Source: Blasia pusilla
Taxonomy: Eukaryota
Reading direction: 5' to 3'
Assembly: GCA_050084515.1 (NCBI GenBank)
Contig: CM114271.1
Span: forward strand, 29,574,001 to 29,638,000
Length of the DNA: 64,000 nt
The notes beneath the pieces are model-generated. The model was not told the origin of the DNA, did no database searches, and worked only from the letters and a program-made list of their open reading frames with translations. The first letter of the stretch is position 1. Every line of letters starts with the position of its first letter. A program made the translations under genes and the position numbers. Of this stretch, positions 3,001-54,479 are shown piece by piece.

Positions 3001-3354
3001 GTCGAATCACAGGTGCAGTGATCGAGCGACGGCCAGGAGAGATGGCGACCTTAGCAGCATTTAGCAGTGCCAGCATTTGGCCTAGTGATTTGATTGAGGG
3101 ACATGTAGAGGATACTCCCATTCATAACATTTCTATGCAAAGGAGTGTCATGGTAGCCGCATCAGTCCGTGGAAGAGAGGTGCCGCTTTGGGGCTCAACT
3201 GAGGAGCTTCGACGCTTAGCCACTGAGCATGTACAGACTGCGTGGAGCAAGACGTTTGCACCAGAGTATCACGAGTCAGAGGAACCCCAAGTAGGTAGGA
3301 GTGATGCTATGGCCCCTTTGGACACCACCCCAATTGTGTGGTGCATCCCAGAGA

Positions 3355-5953: not shown

Positions 5954-6707
5954 TTGGAGATATTTAGGTACTTCTTGTCTCGTTGTTTGGATGCCATGGG
6001 TTAGCATGGGATCGTGCGTGTTTGTGTCTGTTCGGTGACAACGATGTATGTTGTGTAGCAATGTGTATGCGCACGACAACTGTCACGTCTTTTAGGATAG
6101 ATCGGTAAGATCTAGTACAGCACCTTCGTGAGTAGTAGAGGATAGGCTCAGTAGGTTGAGGATGACTCGCTAAGGCCCCGGGAAACGTGAGAGAGCAGGT
6201 TTCCCCTTCGTTTCGGCTCATTTGGAGCCATATTGAGGAACTTACTATTTTAGGTAAGTACCATTTTGAGTATAAGATCAACTTTATATTTTTTGTAAGT
6301 GGCCTTTTACCTCCTACATCAGATCAAGAGCCAAGGAGGTGACTTGGGAGCATAGGTTACCATGGAGTGAGCTTGGAAGAGGGAAGGGGTATACCTCAAG
6401 GAGAGAGAGCTTGAGAGCTCATTCTCTTGGCATGAGGCGGCGGAACTATGGTGTTGCTTGCCTTGTGTGTGTAGCCCAAGCCTCTCATTAGGAGAGTGGG
6501 TTTGGTTTGACATTGAGAGAGACATGTGAGAATGCACACATTTGAGAGCCATGGTATTTAGAGAGATTTCATCTTATTTCTTGGAGATATTTTGGTACTT
6601 CTTGTCTCGTTGTTTGGATGCCATGAGTTAGCATGGGATCGTGAGTGTTTGTGTGTGTGTTCGGTGACAACGATGTATATTGTGTAGCAATGTGTATGCG
6701 CACGATA
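5954..6707 (+). repeat. 3' split direct repeat B1(5954-6078)-AC-A2(6081-6580)-B2(6581-6707) of copy 1
   Basis: The ~125-bp unit ttggagatatt...gcgcacgaca occurs twice, flanking a ~500-bp unit starting tgtcacg. Preceded by purine tract tagggggg. Same layout as 50867-51630. Confidence 0.9.
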
Positions 6708-9290: not shown

Positions 9291-10756
9291 CTCATACGTC
9301 TTGACCAGGAAGTCGCCGACAGCGATGAGAACTAGAAAAGCAAACCTTGAAGAGAAGAAATAGAATTTAGAAGCGAGAAAATTATTCAGTTGCCATGAAG
9401 AGAAGACCAAATGACAACTCCTTTCATATAAGATTTCATGAGGTCTTCTCATCTGTTCCAGCTAACGGAAAAAGTTGCTGTGGCAGTATCATGCGACCCA
9501 CATAAGAGCTCCATCCACCCTTGAAATCTATGAGGTTCACCAAGCCATCCTCAGCACTCTCCACGACCTTCTTTCATATGAGGACGATCTATTAGCATCT
9601 CGGATATCCTCATCGAGCAGCCCATCGTACGATTTTAATCATTGCGTTGTGCTATTCTACAGAGAAAGGCCAAACTGATATCGGCGGAGCAACTGTGAGT
9701 CAACACTCGATAGAACGAAGAGGAGTCATGGGACTTTCCTGGAGAGCAAATCCAGCGGCAGCTACTTTTGGTTCTGGCAAGTGTAGTGTATCACAAGCTT
9801 TCTGACGATACTATCCTGGGCTCCTCAAAATCCTTTTCGCGCTTTCGTTCACCAAGAGCTCCCATCGCTTTTAAAACGAAAGTCGTGGGAAAGAGCGAAG
9901 AAGGCTCCTAACATCCCAGCAGAGGCAGTATTCCAAGATGGCAAGCTGATGGAGAGTGTAAACGTTGGTAGGGCAGGAAGGCGGAGGCGAGTCAAACTCT
10001 GATCTCCAATGCTGGGATTGGCCTTAGGTGTTCTCCTTTCTAACGAAAATCCAGCCCTAGTACTAGCATACAAATAATCCACGCCTGCATCAAGATCCAC
10101 CGGCATATCTTCTTATCTGATTGAATTCGAAATCGGTAAGAAATAAAATCATAGACGCTATCAACGCATCAAATAGGGCTAGTATACAGTATCATGTGGC
10201 TCGCATATGGTTGAGATTGCAATCACAATACGATTTTCGTAAGAGGTGTAGAGTACTTGCTAACCCAAACGTCTTTAAATCGGTTCCTGGTTTCTGCACA
10301 CCCTGCGTTGTATCTCTACCTGGTGAGCATCGATAGTCAAAAACAAGTGTTCTTAGACTTACTCCGTAACTTCAGAATCAAAATATGGATGTAACCATCA
10401 AGTGGCTCATAGATCAAAGGGCCGCCATTGACAGCATGTGCACATTCCTATGTGTTTCAACATTGACCGGTTTTCAATTAGTGTCATGACAACTGACGAA
10501 CTTTCCTTTTCGGAACAAACAGAGTTTACCAAGAAAGGCCACCGGACGTGCATCTGAATTTGGATCTTTGCTCTGACTCAAAGAAAGAGTACCAGTCAAG
10601 CGAATGAAGAAAACCTAGGTGTAAAATAAACTAAATGCGACGACCACCACAGAACCACACGCAGCTCTTACATACTGGAGCAGCTCTTGTCTACGCCTAA
10701 AGAAAAGATTACGGAGAGACGGCACCGAATGGTCAAGGTTCGTCAGATTTCACTCA

Positions 10757-11128
10757 CTAATGGGCATGGGAATCAGGGGCCAAAACGTATCTGAGTCCAC
10801 AGTACTTGCACGTCGCCGGTTCTCCTAAATCCAAATTAATGTACTCGATAGGATGTCCCAGAGATGGATCTCCTCCTCCTTCGCATGCTACAACTCGAAA
10901 ATGAGCCTCGATGGGCGGTATCTCCGCAATCAGCTCCATCGGAGACTTCTTGTCCGAGTTCGTCATCCATTTCGCGGTGTGCTCACTATCAATTGGCAAA
11001 CTCAAAGTTGATAGCCTCCCCACATTTGACAACTGATACCCCCTCCTTGCCACCGCAGGAGCAGTACGGTCAGCACGCCCTAAACTCAACCGCATCAGCG
11101 ATAAGACCAGCCGCCAACTACGAGCCAT
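10757..11128 (-). CDS. NDUFS6: NADH dehydrogenase (complex I) iron-sulfur protein 6 / 13-kDa subunit, mitochondrial (zf-CHCC); intronless, 123 aa
   Basis: C-terminal KSPMELIAEIPPI...VVACEGGGDPSLGHPIEYINLDLGEPATCKYCGLRY is the NDUFS6 zinc finger. ATG at 11128 opens an Arg/Ser/Leu-rich presequence-like N-terminus (MARSWRLVLSLMRLS). Confidence 0.92.
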   Translation of the reverse strand: MARSWRLVLSLMRLSLGRADRTAPAVARRGYQLSNVGRLSTLSLPIDSEHTAKWMTNSDKKSPMELIAEIPPIEAHFRVVACEGGGDPSLGHPIEYINLDLGEPATCKYCGLRYVLAPDSHAH

Positions 11129-11635
11129 CTGCCCTTGCAATTGATCGCTCAAACTTCCCCCGATTCCCAAATCGGCAGAACTCTCCGTGCTCCTGGATTT
11201 GTCAAACACTTGGGAGACCGCAGGAGGAAAAGGAACGCTGCTACTCGCAGACACGAGGAACCGCACTACAATCTGGAAGTCAAGCAGCGGCCAAAGGTGT
11301 TCCCGTTCACCGGGGAAACGCAGAGAGATCCGGAGGACCTCTCGACGATCGACGGCCATAAATGCTGCACGTGTCAGAACACGTGGCACCACAGCAGGGA
11401 CGTTGTGAGAGGATGGTGGGCGAAAACTTTTTGGGAGTTTAAGTACCGTATTCTACCATAGAAGAGATCCAGTGAAGTGAACCTCCCAAGGACAACGCGA
11501 GTACCTTACTTCAGATTCGTGAACCTGCTCGCGATGCCCCATTGGGCGTGAAGGCGAATCGTGAAGGGAGCGCATTGGCACAGCCTTCACCTCAGTGAAT
11601 ACTTTGGCTCACTGCGGTGGAGTCCTAACTCGCAC

Positions 11636-20600: not shown

Positions 20601-23600
20601 CAATCTCCTCTTCCTACTCTCTGATCACTCTGCAGCAGGACAAGAGCCTCAGGAGTCCTCACCAAAACTGTGAAGCTCTCTAAACAGAGACATTATATAC
20701 ATGAGGGTGAGCACTTCTGGCCCTTAGATCTTCTTGAACAGATCCATACCTAAATAATAGATGGTGGCTAACCCTAACTCGAGAATTGCTCTAATTCAAT
20801 TACCCTAAAAAGATAGAGGAACACTAAGTTATCTCTAGCTAACTAAATTAGTATCCAATTAAGTTAGTATCTGACTAACTACTTTTAGGCATGATTAAAC
20901 TAGATATTAACAAATTTCAACACAGACATGGCTCACCATTGAGCACAAACAATCTCCATCAGCATACTAGACAAAACAACATGCCTTCCAGTGAGGCTCT
21001 AGCAAGCACTGACAGCAATTAGTCTCAATCTCCTCTTCCTACTCTCTGATCACTCTGCAGCAGGACAGTCCTTATATTGACATGAGACATTATATACATG
21101 AGGGTGAGCACTTCTGGCCCTTGGATCTTCTTGAACAGATCCATACCCTAAATAACAGATGGTGGCTAGCCTTAACTCGAGAATTGCCCTAATTCAAGGT
21201 TACCCTAAAAAGATAGAGGAACACTAAGTTATCTCTAGCTAACTAAATTAGTATCCAACTAAGTTAGTATTTGACTAACTACTTTTAGGGCATGACTAAA
21301 CTAGATATTAACAAATTTCAACTTCGGTGGGTGTGTTGCAGGCATATACGAGATGTTCATGGTTGTGTTGAACATGTTTTTGGTTCTCTCAAAGAAAAAA
21401 CTAGTGAAAAAATCATATTTGGTGATTTCCAAGCGCTTTGTAGCCGCTTTCTCAGAGAAGTGGAGAGAAATGCTGCTACCAAACTTTCAGATTTGGAGGA
21501 TGAAGGTGCCAGAATAAGAATCAGCTGTACAATGAGGCTTGTGGACAGCTTAGTTTACAAATGCCTTTCATGGGCAATCACTTTCACCTCTCTAGTGGTG
21601 GCACTTTTAGACAGAAACGTACGCATCCTCTTTTCATTTTTCTTCCTATTTTCCAATTCGAGAGATGAGTTGGACAACCTCTTTTGCACAGGGCGAGGTG
21701 TGTGATCATTTGTGGTGCTTGATCCCTCAATTTTCATTCTTAAGGGTTTTCCTATCGTTTTGATGTGCATCCCTTTTTCAATTCAGTAGGCAAATTGGAA
21801 GACAGAAATCTTAACTAGGTCAGAGTTAAGTATGTCAGGTTGTAAACTTTGGGAATGCATCACTTCTTTTGTTGTCCTGAACTGACGTCTGGATAAAATA
21901 TCAAGTCATAGAGAACCAAGGTAAGGAGTTCTGTTGATTCAGAGAAGGCTGTGAGGAAACACTCATGAATAGTTGACCAAATGACATGTGGAGTAGCTGC
22001 GTTTTTCGGGTATTATGTGATCTGGTGGAGGGCCTATCTTTTGCTGTTCTATTTCTTTTTTGTTGGTCCCTTGTTCCCTGCTCTCCAAGGTCATCAAAGT
22101 TAATTCTCGTCTGCTTTGACTGTTCTGCAGATTAGGGATGGTGAATCTACTACAACCTCAGCTATCTCCCTAACTGTACTCACAAATATGCAGTATGTTT
22201 TTGGTACAGTTCCAAGACTTAACATTGCTGTGCAGGCATCTACAGATGGATTCGACTAGGGTAGAAAATGAGCAGGATTATGCCTTTTGTCTGCTAAGTG
22301 GTGATGTAACTGCAAAACTGTCATAGCTTGCGAATTTTCCATGGGTGCTTTGCTAATTTGTAGGAATTTCTGTATTTCAGGATGGTTCTTCTTGGCGGAT
22401 TTGCTCTTGAAGCTACATGTGAGAGGTCGAGAGTTTTGGTCCAGCAAATTGAATTGTTTCGACTTACTCTTCATTGTGATCATCTTTTCATGGGAAGTAT
22501 CAACTATATGGTGTCCAGATCATCTTCAATGGTATGTTAAACCTTCCCTCTGGTGGCATACCCATCTATCCATCTCAACCTTTGTATGTACCTTCTGGGT
22601 GGACATCCTGGTGTTGTGTTATCACAAGCACCCTAGGAACTTTATGCTTGTCAAGAGGAGATGGGATTTCTTTCCCAGACATCTAAATACCAGCTTTTGT
22701 GGCATACTCACAATGTTTGCAGAAAAAATATGATCCATTGTGTGCAGTCTTGGAAGTGGTTGTTCTACCTCTCCTCTTTAAAGGACACTTGAGTAGTTTC
22801 GCCAAAGCTGAAAGGACATTCTATACTCAGTACCTTTTATGTCACGAAAACTAATGCATTCAATCTAATCAAGAGAAGTACTCTTCTTCCAATAGACCTT
22901 GATAGTTGAAAGGTCTGAGCTGGTCACATACCTGAAAAGTCTGATGGAATTCCTCTAGGAAATCTCACAAGACTCGATACGTCATTAAACTTCTGTCTGA
23001 ATTCCATGGTAGTCACAGGACAATCCAAGATGGGCAATTTTAACGTAGATGAAGCTTTCCTCCTGGCACTAGCCAAGCTTACACAGGGACAAGTGATTTC
23101 CTATTGTGATTGCTATAACTGTTTAACAGAGTTCAGTTAGTCAATAATTACTTTTTGCAATTTCTGCATTATTTTTGGTCGCTCCTATTTGTCAGAAGTA
23201 ATAGGAGTGATATCTCACAAAAATTATGGTTTCATAACTGACCTCTGCTGACCAGTGACAGCTCAATGATACTCTGTTTAAAATTGGCAGGCTTTCATTC
23301 ATCATCATCCTACGATCAATCAGAGTCATGGTTCTTCTCACTCACTTCACCCGGTGGCGCATCATGGCTGACTTGCTGATTCGCATGGTCCCAGTGACAG
23401 CACCAATCCTGGGAATTCAATATTGCGTGTGCTCTTTGTTTTCTGTTGTGGGTGTGCACCTTTTTGGTGGACTAGTTTTTGTCGGGAATCCTGTGATAGA
23501 AGGCACAGAGTATGCTACATCAGGTCTGTGGGTGTACAATTTTAATGACTTCGGAGCTGCCATGGTGACTTCTTTCAACTTATGTGTGGTGAACAATTGG

Positions 23601-23891
23601 TTTGTTATCATGGATGGGTATGCAGTAGCTACGGGAACCCTTTGGTCTCGTGCTTATTTCATTACCTTCTGGGCCATTTCAGTGAATTTTACTCTTAATG
23701 TAGTGGTTGCATTCTTTGTGGGAGCTTTCACAACACAATTGGATAAGGTGGAACATCACCAATCCATGGCAGGACTTCAATCATCCAAGTACAAGGTGCT
23801 AACAAGGAAGAAGGTGGGAACATCTTTGTTCATGGGCTATAGCCATGCCTTCTCAAAATACGATCTATACGAGGAGATTGTAAGGAGATGA
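11636..23891 (+). CDS. TPC: Two-pore cation channel (TPC family), 12 exons, ~744 aa
   Basis: GT-AG exons 11636-11839, 12203-12346, 12860-12967, 13556-13648, 14144-14271, 18259-18319, 18577-18834, 19195-19331, 21342-21618, 22131-22203, 22381-22531, 23291-23891 join in frame (2235 nt). Pore 1 LTTANNPNVW, EF-hand DIDRDG, pore 2 NFNDF...VVNNWFVIMDGY. Confidence 0.93.
12629..12956 (+). repeat. Tandem ~165-bp duplication covering TPC exon 3 and its acceptor; upstream copy is a dead pseudo-exon
   Basis: 12629-12793 and 12794-12956 share ctagctaaagcatggccccgtggatttca...catcaatccatcactatctt. The upstream copy has CAC instead of CAG at the acceptor plus an indel. Confidence 0.85.
14520..15945 (-). mobile_element. 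Highly degenerate L1-like LINE RT fragment in TPC intron 5
   Basis: Minus-strand remnant GFIPGRSVT resembles the L1 RT motif GFxxGRxI. Otherwise heavily frameshifted, with approximate limits. Confidence 0.4.
15946..16005. repeat. 60-bp near-perfect inverted repeat (28-bp arms, 4-nt loop)
   Basis: cataatcaggcccagatggcaggggggg-aaat-ccccccctgccacctgggcctgattatg with one mismatch. It abuts an AT-rich block (16006-16390). Confidence 0.9.
17467..18140 (-). mobile_element. Copia solo LTR with 5-bp TSD AATTG
   Basis: Termini tgttggaa...tttcaaca, AATTG on both sides (17462-17466, 18141-18145). Homologous to 19819-20501 and to the Copia 3' LTR at 37256. Confidence 0.85.
19819..21320 (-). mobile_element. 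Copia solo LTR with three tandem copies of a ~400-445-bp terminal segment
   Basis: Flanked by (A)CTTCG direct repeats. Units 20057-20501, 20502-20922, 20923-21320. Reverse complement nearly identical to LTR 37256-37546. Confidence 0.88.
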
Positions 23892-32953: not shown

Positions 32954-35603
32954 TTAAAGAGGTTGAACTCCCACTGAAGATGATATGGAAGGAGAGAGAG
33001 TTTCCACTGAGGGAATAATCGGGGAAGGAGCTGGAATAGGAAAGGAATTTTGAGGATTAGGGGATGAGCGGAAAAATAGAGGATCAGATTTGATAGCCAG
33101 ATCTTGTTCTGAAACACCATTTTGTTGTGGTGTGTGGGGAACAGTGAACTGCTTGAAGATTCCTCGAGAATGGCAGAACTCTATGAAAGCAGATGACTTA
33201 TATTCACCACCATTGTCAGATTGCAATGTCTGAATGCGTCGAGGTTGATGCTGAGTCTCTACATTAGCCACAAATTGAGTGAAACGGGAAAACGCTTCGG
33301 ATTTGTAATGGAGGAGGTAAACAGTAGTATACCGGGAGAAATCTTCAATAAAGACCATGAAATAGCCAAAACCCAAATGAGTAGGGGGAGAAATAGGCCC
33401 ATAAATGTGAGTTTGGATTATTTCTAGAACATTGAGGGCCCTATGGACTGGAATCGTATTAGAAAAAGGTTTATGGGTCCGCTTCTTTGTAGGTAGGCGG
33501 GTGCTCGACATGAAGAAAGTCGCAAGGGACTATGCGTTGGAACGCCGCCAGCCATTTGCTGTTGTAATAGTTGAGAAACCCGAGCAGCATTAATGTGTCC
33601 CAAACGGTGATGCCACAAATCAGCAATCGTGGGAAGAACCATAGTGGCAGCTGTAATGATAGAAGATTGGGAGGGGGGAAGAACAGCTTCTCCGAGTTTG
33701 TACAAATCATCAATTAAGAAACACGTTGTAATGATTTGGTCTTTAGAGTCACGGAGTACGCATTGTCCCTTATGAATCAAGGCAGATCCTCCTGAAGTGT
33801 CTAGTTGCTTGACTGAAAAAAGATTTTTCTTCAAGCTTGGTATAAAGAGAACATTCCGAAGAATGTATCGAATACCATTAGTCAGGAGGATCTCAACGTT
33901 TCCAAATCCTTTTATCTCCAGACTAGAGTTATCACCTAGGAAAACATACGAAGATTTTTCATACGGAGTGTAATCGGAAAAGGAATCAATGGAGAAGGCC
34001 ATATGATGAGTAGCACCGGTATCAAGATACCATGTGTTATCTTGAATATCTGAAGCCGAAGTTGAATAGGCAACTGTAAAGGAGAGATGAGACGTAAAAT
34101 TTGATTTTGGAGCAGACAATCTAGACTGCATTTGCTGATCTGCAAGACGTTTTCGGCAATCTTTAATATGATGCCCCTGCAAATTGCAATAGAAACACGT
34201 CATTTTCTTATAAGTATTCTGCTGATTGGAGGATGAAGCCTGCCAATCAGCTTGATGATTGGACGATTCGCCATGTGGAATCGTCATAGAAGCAGGAACA
34301 AATCCTGATTTGAAAGGACCAAAGCCTTTTTGAGGAGCTTTGCCTCGACCGTAACCTCTAAAGGAGCCCCCTTGCCTCAAATTGCCAAATTTGGACTTCG
34401 ATTGAAAAGGGGCAGAACCTCGTCCAACAAAAAAAGCTGAGGACGGTTCAGCAGTCTGCGTCTTCATCATTTTCTCCTCCCTAAGAAGGAAAGTGATCAC
34501 AGATAGCAACGTAAGGTTACTCTAACCTCGCAATGTGGTCAATAAGTTGCGGTAACTATTGGGTATTGATTGCATCAATGCAAGATACTGATTTTCATCA
34601 GTAGTCACCGATCTAGCAGCGTGGAGTTGATCAATCAATGTCCTAAATTGATGGACATGTTTGGTAACACTATCACCTTCTTTCATCTTAAGAGTCTGCA
34701 ATTCATCGTGCAGATACATTTTTGTGACAACGTCCTGGGCTTGGTATAAAGAATCTAATTTCGTCCAGGCTTCCGCTGCAATCGTAGCGGAACTGATATG
34801 ATAAACTTGCAAATTGTCTAAACGATTTGCTATGAAGGATAAGGCAATTCGGTTGAAAATCTCCCATTCGTGGACACTCCGGCGCATGATGGGGAGCGGT
34901 AGCGCTGGCTGGCTTTGGAGTTGTTCCTTCTACGATGCTTACTAAATCTTCAGCATCAAGGTACAATCTCATGCGTAATCACCAGATATAGAAATAGGTC
35001 CCGTCAAATTTTGGGATGTTGTCAATCTTGAGGAACATGTTAGAATTCACCATCGTGAATTGATGAAAATGATAGAAAACGGGTCAAGGACTTCGAATTC
35101 ATAAGAATCAGAAGTAAGCAGCCACCAAGCAATCAGAAACGAGAAAGGCGTTTGAGCAAAAGGCATCCCTTTACTCTAGGAATGTTGAAGCGTCCCTCAA
35201 ATTCCAATCCTTTCTTGAAAATCGTAAAAGTAGTGACTAGCGACCAAGCTCTGATACCATGTGAGAAATGCGGAATGAATTGAAATTGCGTTTGTACTCT
35301 CTGTGTTCTTTGTGTGTATTGATAGATTGAATGCCGATACATAAGTAGTAAAGTCTTCTCTAAACTAAGAGCCGTAATCAAAAGACGTGACGGTAACTGT
35401 GTCACTTCAGAAATGTCTCATAGCTATGTATTGTTTTGCAAGATGAAACGTTACTAGCAGTAATCAATGGTCATAAGCAGAACATTGATCCTAATCTAAT
35501 CTACATCGTCCGTATGGGTTGATCCATGTGATCAATGTTTAGATCGACTACTATCAATCAGCAATCTGTTGATTTGTTTCGCTGTACTAATTAATTTCTA
35601 ACA
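32954..35603 (-). mobile_element. Ty1/Copia 5' half: LTR (35260-35603), tRNA-iMet PBS, gag, protease, truncated integrase
   Basis: Minus-strand LTR tgttagaaa...tttctcaca followed directly by tggtatcagagc (35248-35259). UBN2-type gag, knuckle CFYCNLQGHHIKDC, protease WYLDTGATHHM, LWHHRLGH, integrase LQSDNGGEY...PQQNGVSE. No RT or 3' LTR seen. Confidence 0.93.
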
Positions 35604-40500: not shown

Positions 40501-43500
40501 AAAAATGTGCCAAAGGTTACCCAAATTCGTTTACAAGCATGACGATATAGACCAAAGATAATTATCCTATCTATCAAAAGTACGCAATCTTTTTATGGCA
40601 AGTTCATTAGTAGGTGATGTAATGTATACATGTAATATCCTTCCTTATTCTTACTCCTTTTGTAGATTGGATGATGGGAAGAAGGTCATGAAGCATGATC
40701 AATCTTTGGACAACTGATGGATTGTGCCATATAATCCTCTATTCTGTACACTCTTTGATTGCCACATAAATTTAAAGATCACGAACACCATTTTTGACGT
40801 AAAATACCTCTATAAGTATGTATATAAGAGATCTGATGTAGTATCATTTAAGGTATCAAAAGCAGGAAATTATCCAAGAACAATGGAGACTATTGATGAA
40901 ACATCATTATATCTTGATGCAAAGTAAGTTCAATCATTTTCCTTCAATTTGGATAAGCTTTATTGTCTTCCATGGAATATATTCCTATTTAATGCTATTT
41001 ATGACATCTTTTTTTTATCACTGTTGTGCACATACATCTCTTCTTCAGAGGCATGTTGGCGACTTTTCAAATTCAAGTTGCATTTAGAACATCCCAGTAC
41101 TATGAGATTGGTTGTTCATTTACCAAATGCACAATTAATTTATTTTACTTATATTGATGTCCTAGAGGAAATCTTACAAAAAAATTATAAATACTACTCT
41201 TACACAATGGTTTGCAGCTAATTGTGATGATCCTACTGCTCAAAAATATCTCTATATTGAATTCCCTTCATACTGTAGTTGGAGGAATAAGAATTGGCTT
41301 CCTAGAGTACAAAAAAGAAACCATTTTGGTCTTCCTATTGGTCGCTTATACCTTACTTATCTAGGTAAGAGCTTCCTATTCTCTCTCATGGCATTGTAGA
41401 CATAATGTTGTATTTCATATATGTAGTTATCTCTATATAATCAAGTTCGGATTTTGATGCACTACCATGCTTTGTAATAATTGAAGGTGCATGCCATTGG
41501 TTGAGATTTCTTTTTCATCATGTTCGTGGGATGACTTTGTAAGAATACTTAAGAACTATGGATGGAGTATTCTGTCCAAAATTTAAGGAGGATACTATTC
41601 AACTGGGAATTCTTGAAGATGATAGGGAAATTTTCTATTACTTCAAAGAAGCTTATGAAATCCGAATTGGCTCCTCACGTTGTCAACTCTTTGCCATTAT
41701 TTTGGAATACAAAGCAACTGCCCAACCTGAATTGCTTTGGAGTGAGCTTTTGGTTGAGTTGATAGATGATCTCTTGTACCAAAAATGTGAGGTAATTCTC
41801 ACTCTTCCTCCATTTAAAAATTTCTATCCTGCAAACTTAACACTTATATTTTTACTAATGTAAATGTTGCACTCCAGACCACAAGAATTCCGGATCTTCC
41901 CCTACATGCTTTCATCATCAATAACGCATTTGTCACGAATGTTAGGATAGATCGGTGAGATCTAGCAGAGCATCTGCACGAGTAGTGGAGGACATACCCA
42001 GGAGGTCGAGGATGACCTATTGAGGCCCCGGGAAACCTGAGAGAGTAGGTTTCCCCTTCATTTCGGCTCATTTGGAGCCATATAGAGAAACTTACTATTT
42101 TGGGTAAGTTTCCATATTGGGGATAGTTGAATTTCCACTTTGGGAAGTGGCCCTCGACCCGCTACACCAGGTCAAGAGCCAAGGAGGTGACCTGCGAGCA
42201 TAGGTTACTGTTGAGAGGGCTTGGGAGAGGGAAGGGGGTGTACCTCCAAGAGAGAGAGCTTGAGAGCTCATTCTCTCTTTGTTGAACTTCTTGGCATAAG
42301 GCGGCGGAGCTATGGTCCCTTGCCTTGTGAGTGTTACCCAAGCCTCTCATTAGGAGAGTGGGTTTGGTTTGACATGAGAGAGAGTGCACATCTTTGAGAG
42401 CTGTGGTGTGAGATGGTGTAGAGAGAGATTGGATCTTACTTTACAAAGAGAAAATGAGAGAATGAGAGAGTGAGAAAGTGAGAGAGCTTCATGGGGGAGC
42501 TCGCTGGTCACTCGCTATTTTTGCAGGTTGGGGACCGTATTCCCCGTTCAGCGGCTGATGGGAGTGCTCACCAGAGCAAGGGCTGCTTTGATTGTTCTTT
42601 GCATTTGCTGATTTTTGGTGTGGAAGAGTGGCGCGCGGAAGCGCTACCCAATTTCTGATAGGGATTGATTATGGGGGCGGGTTGCCCCATGCCGGTGCTC
42701 TCGGGAGCACCATGCACCTTGAAAATTTATATTTTTACAGGTTTTACATTTTCGTTGGGAGAAATCAGCGCGGAAGCGCTGCCAAATTTTGTGTAGGAGA
42801 AAGAGACATTGGGCTTTACGATAGTCCCCGTCAGTTTTTGCTAGAATGTTTGATTCTAAATATTTTTTGACGGTGTCGTAGATGGTGAATTTCTACACGC
42901 TGTACTACAAAGAATGTGCAATTTGGAGTGCGAGGAAAAAGTTATGGTCAATCTTGCAAAATTGCCATTGCTAGGCGTTTTCTAGGGTTAAATTGTTCAA
43001 ACCCTAAACCAGCCGCCACTGTCATAGTCACTGTCAACGGTCTGACCATCATAGTCACTATCAAGGGTCAACCATCACCATCAACGACCAACCGTCACTG
43101 TCAATGGTCAACCATCATTGTCACTGGTCGGCCATCACCATCAACGGTCAACCGTTACCGTCAACGGTCCACTGTCCGTTGTCCACCCTTTGGTTGCCAT
43201 TGCCGCCATTACGGAGTGGAGGGTCTTCCACGATGTTCGTTGATTCTCTGACTTGCGTCACCACCACGTACTTTGTTTTGGACGCCATCGTCATCGCAGT
43301 GTCGTCATCAACCAGTGATGGCAACCATAACCAGCAACCGATTATGGTGTTTGAGTTTTGATTTCATGATGCTATGTTGTGATTGGTAGCCCCTCGACGA
43401 CGATTGAGTAAGGTGCCGTGACGCCCATAGCCGCAACGGACCGCCGATTGCTGCGCCGTGCCGCTCGTGGCCGCACCGCACTATCTCACTCGTGGAACCG

Positions 43501-46324
43501 TTCCTTCACTAAGGAGCACAGCGTGTGAATTGCTGAATGAGGAGGGTATGCCGGCGAGTGTCGCACCCCATTCCCGAGTGCCGTGTTGTTTTTACCCGTT
43601 CCGTGCCGCCGAGTGTCGCACCCCATTCCCGAGTGCCGTGCTGTTTTTACCCGTTCCGTGCCGCCAGTGCCGCACCGGACCGCTTGATCGGCACCGCACA
43701 TCAAGGAGATTGAGCAGCGTGAGTACAAGAGGTGTACGACTTGCTGATTGGAGGAGTTGTCTTCACAATCGAGTTGGGGTCGAGATTTGCAGTTGCTGAG
43801 GAGCGACATCGACATATGTTCAGAATACCCATTCTGGTCCTTTACCGTGCACGTGTGAGGGATTATGGGATTTGGGTAGTTTATTTGGGGATATTGGGTT
43901 GTGTGGATGCTAAGAGCATCATTCATGTATGTGGTTTAGGGGACATAGACCTGTGTGGGATGTCCGGAGTTGAGGGTAGGTTGTCGATGAGATGATAGCC
44001 TGGTCGATTTGCCGCACCACGCCGCGTGTTGCCGCACGTTACACGTCTCGGGGAGGGAGAGTATAGATCGAGTGCCGTATGTTTGGGATGAGAGATTGAG
44101 GGATGACTTGCGAGGTTGAGAGTGATCGGGTGAGAGGGGCACGAGGGTCATCACGACGTCCGTTTGGGACTTTGAGAGGCGAGGTGGTGAACCAGAGAGT
44201 AGCTCTAGAGGTTTTACACGGAGTGGCACGAGGTTTCGAGGGTCTCCACGTGAGGGACCACCTCAACCTCCTTCTATGTCATTGTCAAATGAGGGGGAGG
44301 ATGTACAGGAGTTTGTGGGCACATTGCCACACATTGTGAGTGATCCTACCAATTGGGCATACGAGATGGATGACCGGGATAGAGGACCGCGTAGGTTTTC
44401 AGGTGTAGTAGGCACGATTTCATAACAGAGTTTAGGAGTTGGTGCGACTCCCAGCGGGCCAGGAACTTTAGAGAGTTCAACCCGTTTATAGCATGGAATG
44501 GTATGTTCCATCATTTAGAGGGGGCGCCCATGGACGATTACCATGAGTTCTCCCACAGATATGCCCAAGAGATTGAGGCATGGTGACTCTACTATGACCC
44601 ACACTATGTGTCATGGACGGAGCCGTTCCTAGATGAGGAGGAGGAGTCAGGAGAGGCTACTTCCTCTTCCACTAGTGATGTTTCAGGAGGGGTCACTCGC
44701 ACTAGAGCAGTTGCACCATCTAGTTGGGTCTGTCCTAGATTCAACCCCGAGGTTGAGTTCTTCGCTGAGTTGAGGGCTAGCTACCAAGGGGTACGGACGG
44801 AGAAGTTGCGGAGCATCCACGACTTCCAGAGGCGCCCAGGTGAGAGTTTATGTGAGGCTTACACTCGCTTGCGTCGTTTGATCAACGTCACTAAGGGGTT
44901 GACGGAGGCTCAGGCTATCTAGTCATGGTACGCGATGCTGGACCGGAACCCTACGGACACGGGTGCGCGAGGGAGTGCTTCTTATGAACATCTCCCCTAC
45001 GTTGAGAGATGTTTTTAGGACCGTCGAGAACATTGAGCGCAACCTAGCGGAGGAGAGCGTAACCACCATAGGTTCTAGGTGAGAGCAGTCACGATTGGCT
45101 GCACCATCTATGCAGCAACGTGGACTCCAAGATAGGTTGACTGCGAGACCACGAGCTCAGGGAGGATACCGTGAGGTTGTGCCACAGAGACCTGCGCCTT
45201 CACATGCGGCTCAGCAGCAGCCACCTACTATTACTTGTTGGTCATGTCGTGGAGCCCATCATAAGCATGATTGCACTCGTCAAGGTTATGGACGTGTGCC
45301 TCAGCATGGAGGAGGAGATGGTGCTACACCAGGAGGTTATCAGTGTGACTATTGTCAAAGGTATGGTCATACACATGCCAGATATTTCAGTTTACATCCT
45401 GAGTTACATTCGGACTGAGGGCTAGAGAGGGCACCATAGAGAGTAGCCGGACTAGGTGGGCCTACAGATCGTACACCAGGTGGTCCCGTTGGGGGACGAG
45501 GAGCTGGAGTTTCCCGATAGGGTGGTGGAGCTGCCCGTGGAGGAGGTAGAGTACTACCACCTAGATGCGCCGAGGGAGACGCTGGACGTGAGGTTCGGAT
45601 GGCTGCTCAGATATAGCAACTATATGAGCAGATTACTGCTATGGCATTGAGGTTACCCGATGTCGGATCCGTGGCATCGAATCATATGGAGCAGCCAGAG
45701 ATATGGAGGATCCTAGTTGGATGTGCGGGGTTGCCTAGATGGAGGCCGTCGTAGTTGTGACGCGTGGAGCAGCCGTAGAGTTGGATCCACAGCGAGGGAA
45801 AGCAAGAAAATAGACTAGGCTTCCTCAGTCTTTCACGTTGTCCGAAGCAATGAGGACCCCATCGATGGGTCCTCATCAAAGGTCCTGAAGAGTTGGTGAT
45901 GTTGTTGATATGCAGGCACGGAGGGCGATGGGAGAAGCGATTGCGACGACCCCTATTGTTTGACTCACAAGTACAGTGATCGAGCATTGGCCAAGAGAGG
46001 TGGTGACCTTAGCAGCATTTAGCAGTGCCATCATTTGGCTTAGTGATTTGATTGAGGGGCATGTCCATGTAGAGGATACTCCCATTCTTGACATTTCTAT
46101 GGAGAGGAGTGTTATGGTAGCCGCATCATTCCGTGGAGGAGAGGTGTCGTTGTGGGGCTCAACTGAAGAGCTTCGACGATTGGCAGATGAGCAAGTGCAG
46201 ACCACGTGGAGCGAGGCGTTTGCACTCCCTACTACCTCGGGTCTGAGGAACCCGAGGGAGCAGGGAGTGCTACGATGACACCCTTGGATACCACACCCAT
46301 TGTGTGGTGTATCCCGTAGGAGGG

Positions 46325-47336
46325 ATTTTGAGTGTTAGATCTCTTTGGAGGGATTAGCATCGGGTTAGCTGCTATTTTGCAAGCAAGAGTGCGAGTGCAA
46401 CAGTACCTGTATGTAGAGAGTGATGATTTTGTTGCAAGGTGCGTCTCACTACAACATGTGGCGCAATTACGCCTACGTTTTCCTGACTTATTGTCTGCGT
46501 CCGCAGTACAGGGGTACTAGAGTTTCTTACCGAGGGATATTTCGTTGCTGGGGGTGTAGGACTTTGAGCGGGTAGGGACCATTGATTTGGTCATTGTCGG
46601 TTGGACATGTTAGGGCCAATCGAGTGCTGGACAAGGCAGCGGGTTGGCTGACACTCGGTCTAGGTTGTTTTGGGAGATGTTCAGGGTCTTACGACAGTTG
46701 TAGGAGCACCAGTCTCGTTCTCCAGCCTACATTCTAGAGAATGTGCCGATCTTAGGAGACTCTAGGTCACGGGTGATGACAAGTGCTCATCTAGTGCGTG
46801 CCTGTATTGGCCCAGTAGTGTTCTTGGATGCGGTGAGTGTAGGTTCTAGAGCACATCGCCTTCGTCTATGGTGGACCAACTTGGCGTCTATAGACCAACT
46901 TGGCGTCTAACCCCATACGGTGTTACGGAGGGCGTTTGCGAGAAGAGAGCACCCCTCCCATTTGTTAGTGGATTCCATTATGGATCCAGGTCGTCGATCA
47001 CAAGCAGTTAGGCACAATGATCGACCACCGTTGACTGTGGTCAACAGGGTAGGCAAGCCACAGGCAGCCTTGCCCACGCTTGTAAGTTTTCCCGCTTCCT
47101 ATGCATACAAGGAGGTTGGTCTTGGCTTGGTTTGGGATGACCACGTTCTGCGGTTGATGGAGCCCAATGCCGACAAGAGAGAGCGAGCTATGGGATTTCT
47201 CACAGGAGTGACGGTAGTATTGTCAGTGTTAGGGGCATCACAACGCCATGTCTTGGGTCAAGCGATGGACCTAAACTACTTGACATGGATCCTCAGCTTG
47301 GGAGTGGCTGAGCAGTGCCGTATGAGATTGCGATAG
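46325..47336 (+). pseudogene. Full-length cytosine-5 DNA methyltransferase domain (motifs I-X) inside pol, copy 2
   Basis: VLDLFGGISIG (I), YLYVE (II), IDLVIVGWTC*GQSSAG (IV, decayed PCQ), YILENV (VI), RAHRLRLWW (VIII), variable TRD region, RERAMGF (IX), LGQAMD (X). Confidence 0.9.
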
Positions 47337-50300
47337 ATCACAGCGGTTGCATTAGTGAGCCCCATGCCTACCAAGACGGTGGAGGAAGTGGCTGGGGGCG
47401 AGACCCGAGGAGATCTACACACCAAGGGAGATCATGAGAGACATCCTTGGACTTCTTGGGATGTTTTGCAGGTACGCCAGGAGATGATAGCCCAACATTG
47501 AGCGTGGTTCCGGGCACTACACGTGGAGGAGATCAAAGTTTGCAGTTGGCTGTTGGAGAGCGGCTGAGTGTTGTTGTTCGAGACAAAGTTGCACCATAGC
47601 AACCATCGATACCCGTGTCGGAGAGTCCTACCGTAGTCACGATAGAGACTTGGGAGCTAGATATGGGCCCTAAATTGACATGAGGAGTGCGGCGTCGGAT
47701 ACATCAGTTCCTCAGGAGTTATAAGAGCTGCTTTGCGTTTAGCATGGAGGATTTGGGTATGCTGACGGGATCAGGGATCCGCATTGAGTTGTCGAGTGAT
47801 ATGCTGATCTTCCGACGACCCTACAGATATAGTGATATGGAGAGGGCTCTAATTCAGAGTAGGAGCCAGGACTTGGTCGGAGCAGGACTAGTGGAGATGT
47901 TGCATGGGGAGTATGCACCTACACTGTCATGCCCGCCAAGAAGGATGTGCATGGCAATTGGACGGATAGGCAAATGTGTCGGGATTATTGACGTATCTAT
48001 CGGCAGACAAAGTCTGATAGGTATGCGATGCCCACCCCTGAGGAGATCTTTGATGCGATTGGTCACGTAAAGGTCTTAAGTTCATTGGATTTAGGAGCCG
48101 GATACCATCAGCTGCCTATCAGATTGGAGGACAGGCAGAAGACGACATTTTGGGGCATCCATCCTCACGGGAAGGATTGTTTGTTCTAGTGGTGGTTCTT
48201 ACTATTTGGGTTAAAGAACGCCCCGACTGAGTTTCAGAGGGTCATGGATAGGATCTTGGCTGGTCTGGACTTTGCAAGGTGTTATATTGATGACATCGTA
48301 GTCTTTAGCGCCACGGTAGAGGAGCATGAGCGACATCTAGAGGAGGTGTTTCGAGGATTGCAATTACATGGGCTGAAGCTACATCCAGACAAGTGCAAGT
48401 TCTTCTACGACCAGATTGATTACTTGGATCATACGATATACCCATAGGGCCTTGGTTTCAGCAGATGAAGGTAGAGGCTATCTCACGCATCCCACGCCCT
48501 ACAGATGTGAGCCGTGTTCACACATTCATGGGATTGGCAAACTTCTATCGGCGATACGTCAAGGGGTTCAGTTCGATTGCGAAGCCGCTAACCTTGCTGA
48601 CCAAGGTGGATCATGAGTGGCACTGGGGGGATGAGTAGGAGCAAGCATTTCAATTGCTCAAGGAGAGGTTGACGTCCGCGCCCATCTTGAGGAGACCGAT
48701 CAGGGGGCGTCCTTTCCAATTGCACACAGATTGGAGCATGTTGGGGCTTGGAGCGGTGCTTACCCATCATGATGATGAGGGTAGAGAGTTCGTGGTGGCT
48801 TACGCTAGCCGCTCGAACAACGCTCTAGAGGCGAAGTACAACTCGTATGAGGGTGAGTGCTTGGCTGCAATGTGGGCCGTCGCGCATTTTAGGTGCTACT
48901 TATTCGGCAACCCTTTTACCATGATCACTGATCATCAACCACTGAAGTGGTTGATGGAGTCCGACAAGCTTATAGGGAAGCTTGCGAGATGGGCTCTATT
49001 GTTGCAGGAGTATGATTTTCAGGTGGTATATAGACATGGGACGCTCAACCAGGATACATATGGGTTGAGTCGTAACCCATGCTCGAGTTAGCTAGATGCG
49101 ACTGGAGCTCGATGGCATGCAGAGAGTGATGAGGAGTCAGTGCCAAGATGGCACGCGTCAGCCTATTTAGGCATATTGGCTATGGAGAGCCAGAGTGTGG
49201 AGACTTCGATGGCGAAGTCTAGTGGAGAGTCCTTGGATCTTGAGGCCAGTGAGGAGATGACAGGTGGCCGAGATATTCATGATGATGGAATAGTCTTGGA
49301 GTACCTTCGTACTGGCAGCGTTGCGAGCACCGTGGATGCTAGAGAACGAGATCGGATCCTACAGCGGGCCAGATAGTCCCGTTGGGAGGGGACACATGTT
49401 TTGAGGGTTTGGGAGGATGGTAGAGTACGCGTAGTGCCACATCCTTTGCAGAGAGCACGACTAGTGTAGCATGCCCATGAGGAGTTGGGTCACTTTGGGA
49501 TGAAGGGGACGTACAACTTGCTCTATTGGTGGCGAGGCATGCAGACTGACGTTCAGCAGTTTGTTGCCAGGTGCATGATGTGTGATCAGGTCCGAGCATT
49601 GTTCAATGGTCCGACTCCACAGTTGCATCCATTACCGATCATCGGCTTAGGATATAGATGGAGTTTGGATTTTGCAGGACCTTTGCCTTTGACGGAGCGT
49701 CACAGTCGTTATGTGTTGCTGATGGTCGAGCACTTCTTGAAGTGGATCGAGTTGGTTGCATTGCCTGAAAAAGCAAGTGAGGTAGTAGCTTATGCCTTCC
49801 TTGACCGAGTGCTGAGTCATTATGGCGCATCGGCTGAGGTGTTGACAGACCAGGGTACAGAGTTTCGCGATGAGTTCCAAGCCTTGTGTGATCAAGCGCT
49901 GATCGACCACCGCACGACTTCGCGAGATTATCTCGAGGCGGATGGATTAGCGGAGAGAGTTGTGCAGACGATGAAGAGGGGTTTATGCAAGTATGGCTTG
50001 CAGAGATTTCACCTAGGAGATTGGGACCTCCGGTTTCCGTGGTTGGTGATGGGATACAGATTCAGCAGGCATGCATCCTTAGCGTCTTTTTCACCGTACT
50101 TGCTACTTTATCGTCAAGAGCCCGATTTACTTGCGGCCATTCGTCGAGATGCTGGTCAGGTGCTGGACCTTGATGACCCAGATGTATGGATGCGAGCATG
50201 TTCTCAGAGGGCTGAGTTGTCTCGGAGAGTGATGCCCATGACATTCGAGAACTTGGCGATTGCGCAGCATCGGGATACGTTGAGGTATGTGACTATTCGG

Positions 50301-50866
50301 GGTGGTGGTTATCGACCAACTATCCCGAGGTTTCATCAGGGAGATTATGTGTACTTACAGCAGACGGCACCGACAACGTTGGATGTGACTGCAGGGCGCA
50401 CTATCCTGAGAGTGTGTGATATTTTGCCATCCGATGTTCTCTTGCTGGAGGGACGTGATGGTATGGTTTGGAAGGACCATGTGCGTTATTGTGCGCCATG
50501 TCACCTTCCTAACATTGATGGTACAATAGATCCGAGCTCAGCAGTAGTTCCTATAGGCTTTCGTTGTATGTTGTGTGGTTCTGCTTGTGGTACGGCCACG
50601 ATGCTAGTCTTTGATGGATGTTCGAGAGGTTGGCATATGGCATGTTTGACGCCACCTCTCACTAGGGGTTCCTCGGGGATGATGGATGTGTCCCAGTTGT
50701 ACATAGAGGAGATACTAGGTAGGTTTCAATTATGACTTTTTTCTGTGACATGGATGATAGGAAGGCGACTAACAATGGGGCCACATGAGCACCCGGCATT
50801 TCTGCTCTTAGCGTCCTAGATGGCTATCTGGAGTTAGAGGGACCTAACCACCAGCTAGGGGGGCGA

Positions 50867-51630
50867 TTGGAGATATTTTGGTACTTCTCACCTCTGTGGA
50901 TGGATGCCATGAGTTAGCATGGGATCATGTGTGTTTGTGTATGTGTTCGATGATAGCGATGTATGTTGTGTAGCGATGTGTATGCGCACGACAACTGTCA
51001 CGATTGTTAGGATAGATCGGTGGGATCTAGTGGAGCGTCTGCATGAGTAGTGGAGGACAGGCCCAAGAGGTCGAGGATGATCTGTTGAGGCCCCGGGAAA
51101 CATGAGAGAGCAGGTTTCCCCTTCGTTTCGGCTCATTTGGAGCCATATAGAGAAACTTACTATTTTGGGTAAGTTTCCATATTAGGGATAATTGAATTTC
51201 CATTTTGGGAAGTGGCCCTTGCCCCGCTACAACAAGTCAAGAGCCATGGAGGTGACCTGCAAGAATAGATTACCGTTGAGAGGGCTTGGGAGAGGGAAGG
51301 GGGTATACCTCCAAGAGAGAGAGCTTGAGAGCTCATTCTCTCTTTGTTGAACTTCTTGGCATAAGGCGGCGGAGTTATGGTCCCTTGTCTTGTGAGTGTA
51401 ACCCAGGCCTCTCATTAGGAGAGTGGGTTTGGTTTGACATGAGAGAGAGTGTTTGAGAGCTATGGTGTGAGATGGTGTAGAGAGAGATTGGATCTTCCTT
51501 TAATTGGAGATATTTTGGTACTTCTCGCCTCTGTGTATGGATGCCATGAGTTAGCATGGGATCGTGTATGTTTGTGTGTGTGTTCGATGACAGCGATGTA
51601 TGTTGTGTAGCGATGTGTATGCGCAAGACT
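50867..51630 (+). repeat. 3' split direct repeat B1(50867-50993)-AC-A2(50996-51503)-B2(51504-51630); A1 at 41931-42443
   Basis: A2 matches the 5' terminus A1. B is duplicated only at the 3' end and is absent after A1. Confidence 0.92.
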
Positions 51631-54479
51631 CATTATTGGAAGTGCTCTAATTTTTGCAAGATCAGGGAAAGTCATTATCAGATTTCTCGAATATGCCCCA
51701 AGCAAACTTTTGAGCAATTCATGTCCTAAGCAAACTTTTGATCAATCGCTTTTGCACTTAGAAGAAGAAGAGTTATTGCATGTCATTGATCAACATGGGC
51801 TCCAAAATCGTGTGCAATTAGGAGAATCATCTTTGAATGAAGGACAACGTAAGATTTGGGATGCTGTACATGATCATGATGAACTTCATAGTATTTCCCT
51901 TGATGCTCTACCATCTGCCAAACTATTCTTCATTGATGACCCAAGTGGAAGGGGAATGAAATTCTTATATAATCTTCTTCTCGCAAGTATGAGAAATAGT
52001 GGGGGTATAGCTTTGGTTGTTGCATCATCTGGGATGGCCGCTCTTTTACTAGATGGAAGCCGTACGACACATTCATGCTTCAAGATTCCTTTCACGCTTG
52101 ATAAGAGCTCTACTTGCAAGTAGGTCTCACTAATTAAATCATCAATAAGAGGGAAATGAAGCCTCTACCTTGAATTTTCAAGTCCTAATTTATTTCATTC
52201 TTACATAATATGTAGATTTCCAGTTTCCAGTCTTGTAGCACACTTAATTCAATGACTTTTGCTTATTATATGGGATGAATCATCCATGACTCATCGTCAC
52301 GCATTTGAGGTAGTTAATCATACCTTACAAGATATTATGGGAATGGTCTGTGAGAAATTTAGGCATATACCATTTGGGGGGAAGTTGATAATATTTGGTG
52401 GTGATTTCCGCCAAGTCTTACCTAGTTGTTCGTCATGGGGACAGTCCAAGAATGATCCAAGCCACTTTAGAGAGATCAATGTTATGGTCTCATATAAGGG
52501 TTAGGAAGTTAAGTACAAATATGAGAGTTCAAAGGTTGGAAGGTCATATGTGCATTCACCAACAAGCTTTGCTGATTGATTATTGGAAGTAGGAGAAAGT
52601 CACATACTGTAGCAATTACTCTTGGAAGATAATTTTATATAATTGCCATAGGATATGGTCACAAAAAATAAGAAAAAAGGCGATCTTATTGATACTATTT
52701 AATATGGAAACAATCCTCAACTCTTTCATGATATCAAATCTTTGAGAGACACAACTAGTTTGACACTACAAAATAGAGATGTTTATGAGATTAACGATGA
52801 AGTCATGTCTCGATTCCATAGACATCTCATAAGAATTTTCCATTCATCTAAGTAAGTTATGTCATTCCGTATGATGTATGTTCATGACTACATCTAATCC
52901 ATATTATATATGTTATCTAGAGGAGCATACTTACCTTAATATTGACTAAGTCCCAAATGAGGGTATAAATCATGTCTATTCTGAAAGAATTCTTGAATAC
53001 ATGCTTGCCTTGTAGCCTACCTCCATATCGTTTGTGTTAGAAAATAGATACATCCATTTTGCTCTTACAAAACATGGATGGCTCCAATGGACAAGCAAAT
53101 GGTACACAAATGGTAATTCAAGGATTTATGCAACATGCGATTGATGGAGAAATTATCACAGGAAAGAACATCGAAGATCGTGTTCTTACTCCACGTATTC
53201 CATCAATCGCATCTCATTTCGGCATACCTCTTGATCTACGTAGAGTTAAATTCCCTATTCGCCATGCATTGGCCATAATCATAAATAAGTCTCAAGGTGA
53301 GACTTTACAAAAAGTTGGGATTTACTTACCTACTACTATTTTTTTCTCATGGCTAGTTGTATGTAGCTTTATCTAGAGTTCGGCTTAGGAAAGCAATACA
53401 TATTACACTTGTAAATAAAGAGTTTAACTTCATCCATAATGTAGTGTATAGAGAGATCTTATAATGAAATTTAAAAAAAACATAAATTTTCCATATTTTT
53501 TCATGAATAAAAAACCCGTGCTTTGTATGGGCATCTTACTAGTCTCTTTATAAACTACACTAGGTGTGTAATGATATTCACTAGATCTTTCTCTCTTTCT
53601 CCTTTTCAAATTATAGTAATTCAAATCATATAAACGAGGTTTGTAAAATAGTTTCTTTTTAACGTGACGACCAGGTGTTTAAGAAGCTCCTTACAAAAAA
53701 AGAAATCTTACCTTAACAATATAACTGAAATTATCTTAAAAAAAAGGAAAGGATATACTATTAAAATAAAATTACCTCGCAGAGATGAAACGTTTGAAAT
53801 CATGCTCTCCCATTTTTGGACACGTATCAAAATATAATTTGAAAATATGAATTGATTTGATCAATTGTGTATACTAAATTTCATTTTATAGTAGTAAGGA
53901 TCCATGAGGGAGGTTTCAATATCACTCTCCTTACCCATCTCTCTATATGACCTAAAAATTATCTTTGACGGAATAGTGACGTGTATCAAAAAGAGGAAAG
54001 ACTAAATAAAAATTATCCTTCAATTAGTATATAAATTAATTAATGTAAACTAGTGTAAATCATTGTAATGTATGAGTTTAAATCATCTCCACTAATTAAT
54101 TCTCAAAGTTTTAAAACTAATTTCGAACAATCCTATTAATTAAAATGAATCATCTTATTTGATTGATTATGCCAAGTGTCGAAAGGAGAAATGTTTGCAA
54201 AATGATAGGGCATTGTCCAATAATTGTATAGATGCATGAACGTGGAGGCTATAGGCACGTGAATCCCAACTTGTAAGCCATGTCCCATATTTACCATTTA
54301 AAAAAAATAGGTAGTCCCCGGTAGGAACTAATTTACTCTTTGACTTACTTACAATATATATCCACTTTATATCCACTGAAAAGAGGACAAAGAAAGGTAA
54401 TAACATCTCAAAAGAGGAGTAAAAAAATGCATAATGGAATGCAAAAAGAAAATGGCAACTAGCCAAGGCAAACATCGAT

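Follow-up and report, generated by a model that had tools for sequence, protein, structure and literature searches.

Remnants of a Gypsy-type retrotransposon family carrying a DNMT3-like methyltransferase in the liverwort Blasia pusilla

Described methyltransferase-bearing retrotransposons and the Blasia locus

Retrotransposons that encode their hosts' own silencing enzyme present a paradox, and descriptions of them have come only from dinoflagellates and a single charophyte alga. Here we report on a stretch of 64,000 nucleotides from the liverwort Blasia pusilla (assembly GCA_050084515.1, contig CM114271.1, positions 29,574,001 to 29,638,000; hereafter the window), in which two broken copies of a Gypsy-type retrotransposon carry a cytosine-5 DNA methyltransferase (C5-MTase, or MTase) domain. 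A counterpart has been described in the alga Klebsormidium nitens, where KnitGypsy-Dnmt3 was reported by de Mendoza et al. in 2018 (PMC5890265). In the available sections of that paper the element holds unrearranged Dnmt3 domains in the Pol open reading frame (ORF) of a Gypsy retrotransposon, with Ka/Ks <0.2, and its repeats are the same as those of a DIRS retrotransposon, defined there as A-coding region-B-A-B. The acquisition is framed in the same sections as an event of the K. nitens lineage, and Marchantia has 0 occurrences in the available text. In the yeast assay described there, de novo CG methylation arose only from domains of the Symbiodinium DIRS elements (PMC5890265). Later papers, in their available parts, cite 'streptophytes (Gypsy-DNMT3)' as known (preprint 10.64898/2026.05.21.726589; PMC12344493), and the available parts of PMC11982613 and PMC6453930 hold nothing on DNMTs borne by transposable elements (TEs). 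We found no explicit report of Gypsy-DNMT3 in liverworts or mosses in full-text searches of the literature; supplementary tables may already list such proteins.

The window element has in common with KnitGypsy-Dnmt3 an unrearranged Dnmt3 domain in a Gypsy pol and the A-coding-B-A-B repeats, and purifying selection on the MTase is alike, the ratio measured here being 0.18. The two differ in host, an alga in the one case and in the other a liverwort with relatives in further liverworts and in Sphagnum, and the window copies are dead. SymbioDIRS-Dnmt3 of Symbiodinium also combines a Dnmt3-type domain in a retroelement pol with A-coding-B-A-B repeats, but it relies on a tyrosine recombinase, in contrast to the DDE integrase of the window element and its H2C2 and PHD fingers. 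Chromoviruses resemble the window element in another respect, having a chromatin reader at the C-terminus of a Gypsy integrase that presumably guides integration; theirs is a chromodomain, whereas here it is a PHD finger. The targeting of chromovirus integration is summarised in the available part of preprint 10.64898/2026.05.21.726589. We put at roughly 80% the probability that both window copies are old insertions, by now inactive, from a bryophyte branch of Gypsy-DNMT3 retrotransposons whose active members would follow the mechanism set out below. The element type itself is already described, and the new part is the host range, which takes in land plants and above all bryophytes.

The methyltransferase domain and its relatives

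An earlier reading of this DNA from its letters (the sequence-only reading) had placed a C5-MTase inside pol, upstream of the reverse transcriptase (RT), in two copies. Both copies do match PF00145 above the Pfam cut-off of 22 bits, with stops read through as X where needed. In copy 1 an ORF at 3591-3950 gave an E-value of 1.4e-13 (51.4 bits) and the read-through of 3255-3917, with three stops as X, an E-value of 8.9e-14, the scores for this copy being 51.4-52.1 bits. PF00145 was matched by none of the 17 single plus-strand ORFs of at least 80 residues in copy 2. The domain of this copy lies in a single plus-strand frame at 46245-47498, which contains eight in-frame stops (six TAG, one TGA and one TAA) and, with these read as X, matched the family with an E-value of 4.1e-7 and 30.2 bits. 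A PF00145 protein of Marchantia polymorpha aligns to 96% of this frame with 59% identity. Inspection of the frames by eye showed the entire MTase domain to stand in a single frame in each copy.

An alignment of 16 relatives and the two copies contains, in order, FGG, GWPCQG, YILENV, GSRAHRxRLWWTN, ALPTL and ERERAMGF with LGQAMD, which we take to be the C5-MTase motifs I (FxGxG), IV (PCQ with the catalytic Cys), VI (ENV), VIII, IX and X. This motif order is unpermuted, unlike that of DRM. In copy 2 the motifs start at 46341 (I), 46602 (IV), 46737 (VI), 46848 (VIII), 47070 (IX) and 47178-47256 (X), with the PCQ of motif IV mutated to T-C-stop. In copy 1 the intact PCQ predicted near 3636 was found at 3636-3644 and ENV at 3768; only motifs I-VIII are present, IX and X having been deleted. 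The earlier claim that motifs I-X occur in order in two copies holds for copy 2, its altered PCQ aside, and as far as motif VIII for copy 1. Both copies also have a TAG at the same MTase codon between motifs I and IV (3588-3590 and 46557-46559), where Marchantia has Pro. Parallel CAG-to-TAG decay is a plausible origin for this common stop, and by a rough estimate such decay accounts for it about as well as chance allows.

To which type the domain belongs was addressed by profile and by fold. Searched alone against the PDB, the decayed domain of copy 2 retrieved DNMT3A/B/C only (29 sequences at E<=0.01, best 2e-7). A profile built from the 16 relatives matched DNMT3A at 3.7e-23, DNMT3C at 7e-20 and DNMT3B at 1.5e-19, and more weakly tobacco DRM (2.8e-13), Arabidopsis DRM2 (~2e-10), M.HhaI (1.9e-9) and DNMT2 (4e-4); none of the 54 PDB sequences that it matched at E<=1e-3 was a DNMT1 or a CMT. 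The matches listed by Foldseek for an AlphaFold2 (AF2) model of the domain (pLDDT 79.4, pTM 0.79) were all DNMT3A/B/C, with a best E-value of 4e-16 and target-normalised template-modelling (TM) scores of 0.75-0.79 against isolated catalytic-domain chains. Profile and predicted fold assign the domain to the DNMT3 type, with unpermuted motifs; the tree described below contains no host plant DNMT3. The catalytic domain of host DNMT3A/3B/3C is the best match by both profile and fold and has the canonical motif I-X order in common with the window domain. Identity in the fold alignments is, however, only 17-20%, and the window domain is embedded in a retroelement polyprotein without an adjoining PWWP or ADD domain.

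Cluster representatives matched in an exhaustive HMMER search numbered 1775 at E<=1e-3 and 169 at E<=1e-30, and polyproteins of 1000-3400 residues were numerous among them. Hypothetical proteins of M. polymorpha made up 13 of the 26 matches of a 'longer' search, at 49-64% identity, together with one protein each from Sphagnum fallax and Closterium. The 14 named proteins among the 45 of a 'near' search came from M. polymorpha (five), Calypogeia fissa (four), Sphagnum species (four) and Riccia sorocarpa (one). A Scenedesmus 'pol' is also among the relatives, and no vascular plant or Klebsormidium protein was among the matches listed in these searches. The bryophyte relatives are annotated merely as hypothetical proteins, and those from Closterium and Scenedesmus are more distant. 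In the M. polymorpha protein P0157 two CCHC knuckles are followed by a protease (LLDSGA at residue 638) and then the MTase, a second protein from this species, P0163, runs MTase-RT-RNase H, and an uninterrupted gag-protease-DNMT reading frame of 1278 residues is found among the M. polymorpha gene models. The polyprotein of the family is gag (2xCCHC)-protease-DNMT3-like MTase-RT-RNase H-DDE integrase-PHD, bounded by split direct repeats. The sequence-only reading had placed the MTase between the protease and RT; the half protease of copy 1 and the intact relatives P0157 and P0028 argue for this order, and copy 2 has no protease from which it could be read.

Using local BLAST we sorted 233 fetched relatives by domain order. 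The MTase lies between RNase H (RH) and integrase (INT), usually with a PHD, in 97 of them, including Scenedesmus. It precedes RT in ten, as protease (PR)-DNMT-RT or DNMT-RT-RH-INT, and this is the order of the window and of the M. polymorpha and Sphagnum gene models. A further 124 consist of the MTase only and two have no MTase. In a midpoint-rooted FastTree phylogeny of 167 MTase domain sequences, built without a host DNMT3 outgroup, all 94 sequences of the RH-DNMT-INT type fell into one clade of 118 tips (support 0.77), which held none of the seven of the DNMT-RT type; the two orders part cleanly on this tree. The window copy fell into a clade of 17 tips with Marchantia, Calypogeia and Sphagnum (support 1.0). 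It is possible that the PR-DNMT-RT order constitutes a variant of its own.

A comparison of dN/dS (the ratio of nonsynonymous to synonymous substitution) across copies had been proposed, with neutral evolution as the contrary outcome. Between copy 1 and copy 2 the ratio is 0.18 over 182 MTase codons, against 0.87 and 1.73 for the same columns in shifted frames, from which we conclude that the MTase domain was under selection. Over 148 RNase H codons it is 0.16, with 1.13 and 2.03 in the shifted frames. Judged by these codon comparisons, the MTase was held under the same constraint as a core replication enzyme for most of the divergence of the two lineages. Taken with the occurrence of the same architecture in M. 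polymorpha proteins, the low in-frame ratio makes the MTase a family trait, as the sequence-only reading had held, and not a one-off capture.

These results bear directly on two other histories. In the first, a Gypsy element landed in, or took a fragment of, a host DNMT3 gene and the product then spread by segmental duplication. Host DNMT3 genes do exist in bryophytes, according to the available sections of PMC5890265, and both window copies are broken. This account is nevertheless largely refuted, and we regard it as highly improbable, since the MTase shares the reading frame of the protease remnant and precedes RT in both copies, the flanks of the copies differ and their mutual identity is 80-88%, the same fusion occurs in polyproteins from M. 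polymorpha, Closterium and metagenomes, and selection on the domain is evident from dN/dS. In the second, a domesticated host gene (a DNMT derived from a TE), and not a mobile family, gave rise to the window copies and the bryophyte hypothetical proteins. Their annotation as genes in M. polymorpha and Calypogeia would fit such a descent, but there are many paralogues per genome, whole-genome sequencing (WGS) depth shows parts of the element to be highly repeated, and the window copies have terminal repeats, gag, RT and integrase and are decayed. We give this second history almost no credence.

Organisation, ends and decay of the copies

Copy 2 is the whole element and occupies 41931-51630 on the plus strand, as delimited by self-BLAST, Pfam and tblastn with relatives. 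Its parts are arranged as A1-leader-gag-(protease deleted)-DNMT3-like-RT-RNase H-integrase-PHD-polypurine tract (PPT)-like tract-B1-AAC-A2-B2, all on this strand. The gag is decayed across three frames at 44381-45873, as located by tblastn with residues 9-490 of P0157, and its Retrotrans_gag match is weak (E 0.028). Residues 490-768 of P0157 find no tblastn counterpart between 45873 and 45991, where the protease has been lost. Downstream of the MTase lie RT at 47923-48450 (RVT_1 at 48190-48444, E 4.3e-19, and tblastn with P0028), RNase H at 48639-49091 (RT_RNaseH at 48639-49088, E 8.1e-35) and the integrase at 49470-50735, a 421-residue ORF (49470-50732) with an H2C2 zinc finger (Integrase_H2C2, 8.8e-10), an rve core (3.8e-10) and a C-terminal PHD. 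The succession RVT_1, RT_RNaseH, Integrase_H2C2 and rve is the Ty3/Gypsy order with a DDE integrase and bears out the description of the element as Gypsy-like. The PHD finger lies at about 50562-50700, with its last Cys pair in another frame; on inspection of the frames it is recognisable in both copies, with the third cysteine mutated. The nearest solved PHDs to the finger of a relative are those of KDM5/Lid PHD1, UHRF1, KMT2D, ATXR5, BAZ2, AIRE and PHF21A. Most of these fingers read the unmodified histone H3 tail.

Between A1 and gag is a leader of 1.9 kb (42444-44356) with no recognisable ORF and a short tandem duplication at 43549-43676. Segments of it stand at very high WGS depth, for example 43849-44129 at ~124x. 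A Pfam search of the ORFs of this leader and of the minus strand of copy 2 found nothing credible.

The ends of the element had been called unusual, and they prove to consist of A-coding-B-A-B repeats in place of the plain arrangement of two long terminal repeats (LTR...LTR) of Ty3/Gypsy. Repeat A1 (41931-42443, 513 bp by self-BLAST) begins TGTCACG, and the B1-AAC-A2-B2 block at 50866-51629 is made up of B1 (50866-50992), A2 (50996-51502) and B2 (51503-51629). The purine tract AGGGGGGCG, read from the sequence at 50857-50865, stands directly 5' of B1, as it also does in copy 1. The internal B1-AAC-A2 junction reads GACA-AC-TGTC and resembles a junction of joined ends. Within copy 2, A1 and A2 are 92.4% identical over 513 columns and B1 and B2 94.5% over 127 columns, and the corresponding Kimura two-parameter (K2P) distances of 0.069 and 0.058 indicate that the insertion is old.

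Split direct repeats are presented as a hallmark of DIRS, PAT and Ngaro elements in the legend of Fig. 1e, among the available parts of PMC5890265, and they would suit a DIRS/PAT-like retroelement with a tyrosine recombinase in place of a Gypsy. No tRNA-iMet primer binding site, the only primer motif tried, was found next to A1 or elsewhere in the element, which would agree with the same assignment. On the other side, Phage_integrase, the tyrosine recombinase family, had no match in the 17 plus-strand and 10 minus-strand ORFs of copy 2, rve and Integrase_H2C2 are present, and RT and RNase H belong to the Gypsy-type RT_RNaseH families. We consider a DIRS/PAT-like identity very unlikely and retain the assignment to Gypsy.

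Copy 1 is truncated at its 5' side and lies at about 2313-6716 on the plus strand (self-BLAST, Pfam and tblastn). It comprises a gag piece (2389-2715), a protease reduced to its C-terminal half (from 2715, the DSG motif being lost), DNMT motifs I-VIII (3255-3917), RT/RH (3925-5049), PHD (5581-5766), B1 (5953-6077), A2 from 6081 and B2 from 6581. The right end, B1-AAC-A2-B2 at 5953-6716, is kept and the left end is lost. At least three internal deletions have occurred. By the first, gag lost its end and the protease its DSG half. The second, of ~1.1 kb, joined 3915 to 3938 (46884/48002 in copy 2), eliminating motifs IX-X together with the N-terminal portion of RT and fusing MTase motif VIII to the middle of RT; the third, of ~0.77 kb, removed the integrase core. 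By self-BLAST the flanks of the two copies differ, and their mutual identity is below the 92.4% between A1 and A2 of copy 2, so copies 1 and 2 are separate insertions, in agreement with the independence claimed for them from the letters. With their stops, frameshifts and deletions both are dead, fossils without present function.

A third piece lies at 7559-9291 on the plus strand and represents the gag of a related, diverged family; it was located by tblastn with residues 1-477 of P0157 and by sensitive blastn. It has ~59% nucleotide identity to copy 2, contains gag only and abuts the end of copy 1; a Pfam search of the ORFs of this piece and of the left flank gave no match. At 6581-6730, ATG+TGCCACG comes after the B2 of copy 1 and mimics the internal B1-AAC-TGTCACG junction; the third element then starts. 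This arrangement could reflect insertion end to end or what is left of a tandem form. In all three pieces (2001-10000 and 42001-52000) the coding strand has a strong positive GC skew of 0.12-0.35 and a mostly negative AT skew, and in this it departs from the rest of the window; family composition or strand-biased C-to-T decay could be the cause.

Directly downstream of copy 2 are PIF1-like helicase fragments at 51835-52501 (E 1.7e-17 and 6.3e-17), possibly a remnant of a Helitron that received this copy. Elsewhere in the window, 23259-23888 is an exon of a two-pore cation channel gene, with 76% identity to MpTPC2, 71% to a Riccia fluitans protein and ~50% to mosses. By protein similarity this exon puts the host in the class Marchantiopsida, with the complex thalloid liverworts and apart from M. 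polymorpha. On the minus strand, 32954-35259 holds an element of Copia type, in which gag, Pol_BBD, gag_pre-integrs and rve were recognised, with an exact tRNA-iMet primer-binding motif at 35248-35259. Also on the minus strand, at 10757-11449, an ORF of 230 residues with a zf-CHCC domain (PF10276, E 4e-15) is probably a host gene.

Proposed function and meaning for bryophytes

In active copies the MTase, either free or still joined to RT, would accompany the replication complex and methylate cytosines in newly made double-stranded cDNA or in a fresh insertion. That the MTase is cleaved and packaged and that the cDNA is self-methylated are steps that we infer. The PHD finger would tether integration to nucleosomes whose H3 tail is unmodified, a role comparable to that of the chromodomain in chromoviruses. 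The sequence-only reading had seen in the two domains a writer-plus-reader system. PHD remnants are indeed present in both copies, but the finger sits on the integrase and for this reason is more likely a guide of integration than a partner of the MTase.

A different role for the MTase must also be weighed. The domain may be real and selected and yet do something other than silence by self-methylation of cDNA: it could methylate RNA, protect the cDNA from deaminases or from foreign-DNA sensing, or act as a non-catalytic module for DNA binding or oligomerisation. Such roles are listed by the 2018 authors themselves, whose Klebsormidium domain gave no DNA methylation in yeast (available sections of PMC5890265). 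The Pro of PCQ is replaced in some relatives, by ECQ in P0008, P0012, P0021 and P0028 and by SCE in P0015, and the window element has no extra CpG depletion, both of which would fit a role of this kind. Against it, most aligned relatives retain the catalytic Cys, ENV and the arginines of motif VIII, and the best fold match is to DNA-bound DNMT3A/B catalytic domains; for RNA methylation in particular, the RNA enzyme DNMT2 is a far weaker match to the profile than DNMT3A (4e-4 against 3.7e-23). We regard such another role as doubtful but deserving of serious thought, and continue to favour the proposed DNA self-methylation by a Gypsy-DNMT3 family.

Several observations nonetheless weigh against the account that we prefer. 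WGS depth, counted from reads at least 95% alike, is ~4-7x in the DNMT bins against 27-111x over RT-RH-integrase and 164x at the 3' end, and there may be many close relatives without the MTase domain, or with a more diverged and faster-diverging one. RNA reads on 42444-50865 numbered 132, 156 and 153 in three runs of about 10-12 million records each, and 63-113 of the reads per run were only 95-99% alike to the element. Two of the four bins over the MTase core (46378-46939) had no RNA reads in all three runs and a third had one trace. There is no evidence of expression of copy 2, and family-level expression in the three RNA runs is low. The observed/expected CpG ratio is 0.64-0.78 in the element and 0.42-0.79 in the rest of the window; as the element is no lower than its surroundings, it bears no footprint of self-methylation. 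Among the structural features, the missing primer binding site counts on the same side, and the evidence for a possible 4-bp duplication at the insertion site (CATT, 41927-41930 and 51631-34) is weak, coming from a single copy and requiring the element to end at 51630. The expected RVT_1 and rve domains were found by Pfam, but the PHD of copy 2, at 4.7e-4 and 20.6 bits, stays below the cut-off of 24. The failure of the Klebsormidium domain to methylate in yeast belongs here as well, a result that its authors call inconclusive in the available sections of PMC5890265. Finally, the suggested kinship with KnitGypsy-Dnmt3 is one of shared architecture as described in text, and not of alignment, tree or domain order.

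More broadly, and only tentatively, we raise the view that Gypsy-DNMT3 is an old green-plant lineage with a DNMT3 writer and an integrase PHD reader in two domain orders, of which the bryophyte branch would be an undescribed variant that may still be mobile in M. polymorpha. The window and its database relatives place the Gypsy-DNMT3 type in land plants, namely in liverworts and Sphagnum mosses. Marchantia is genetically tractable and has long ORFs of this family, and so would offer an experimental system for self-methylation. Should the family prove to be mobile in M. polymorpha, what a transposon gains from methylating itself would become testable by genetics.

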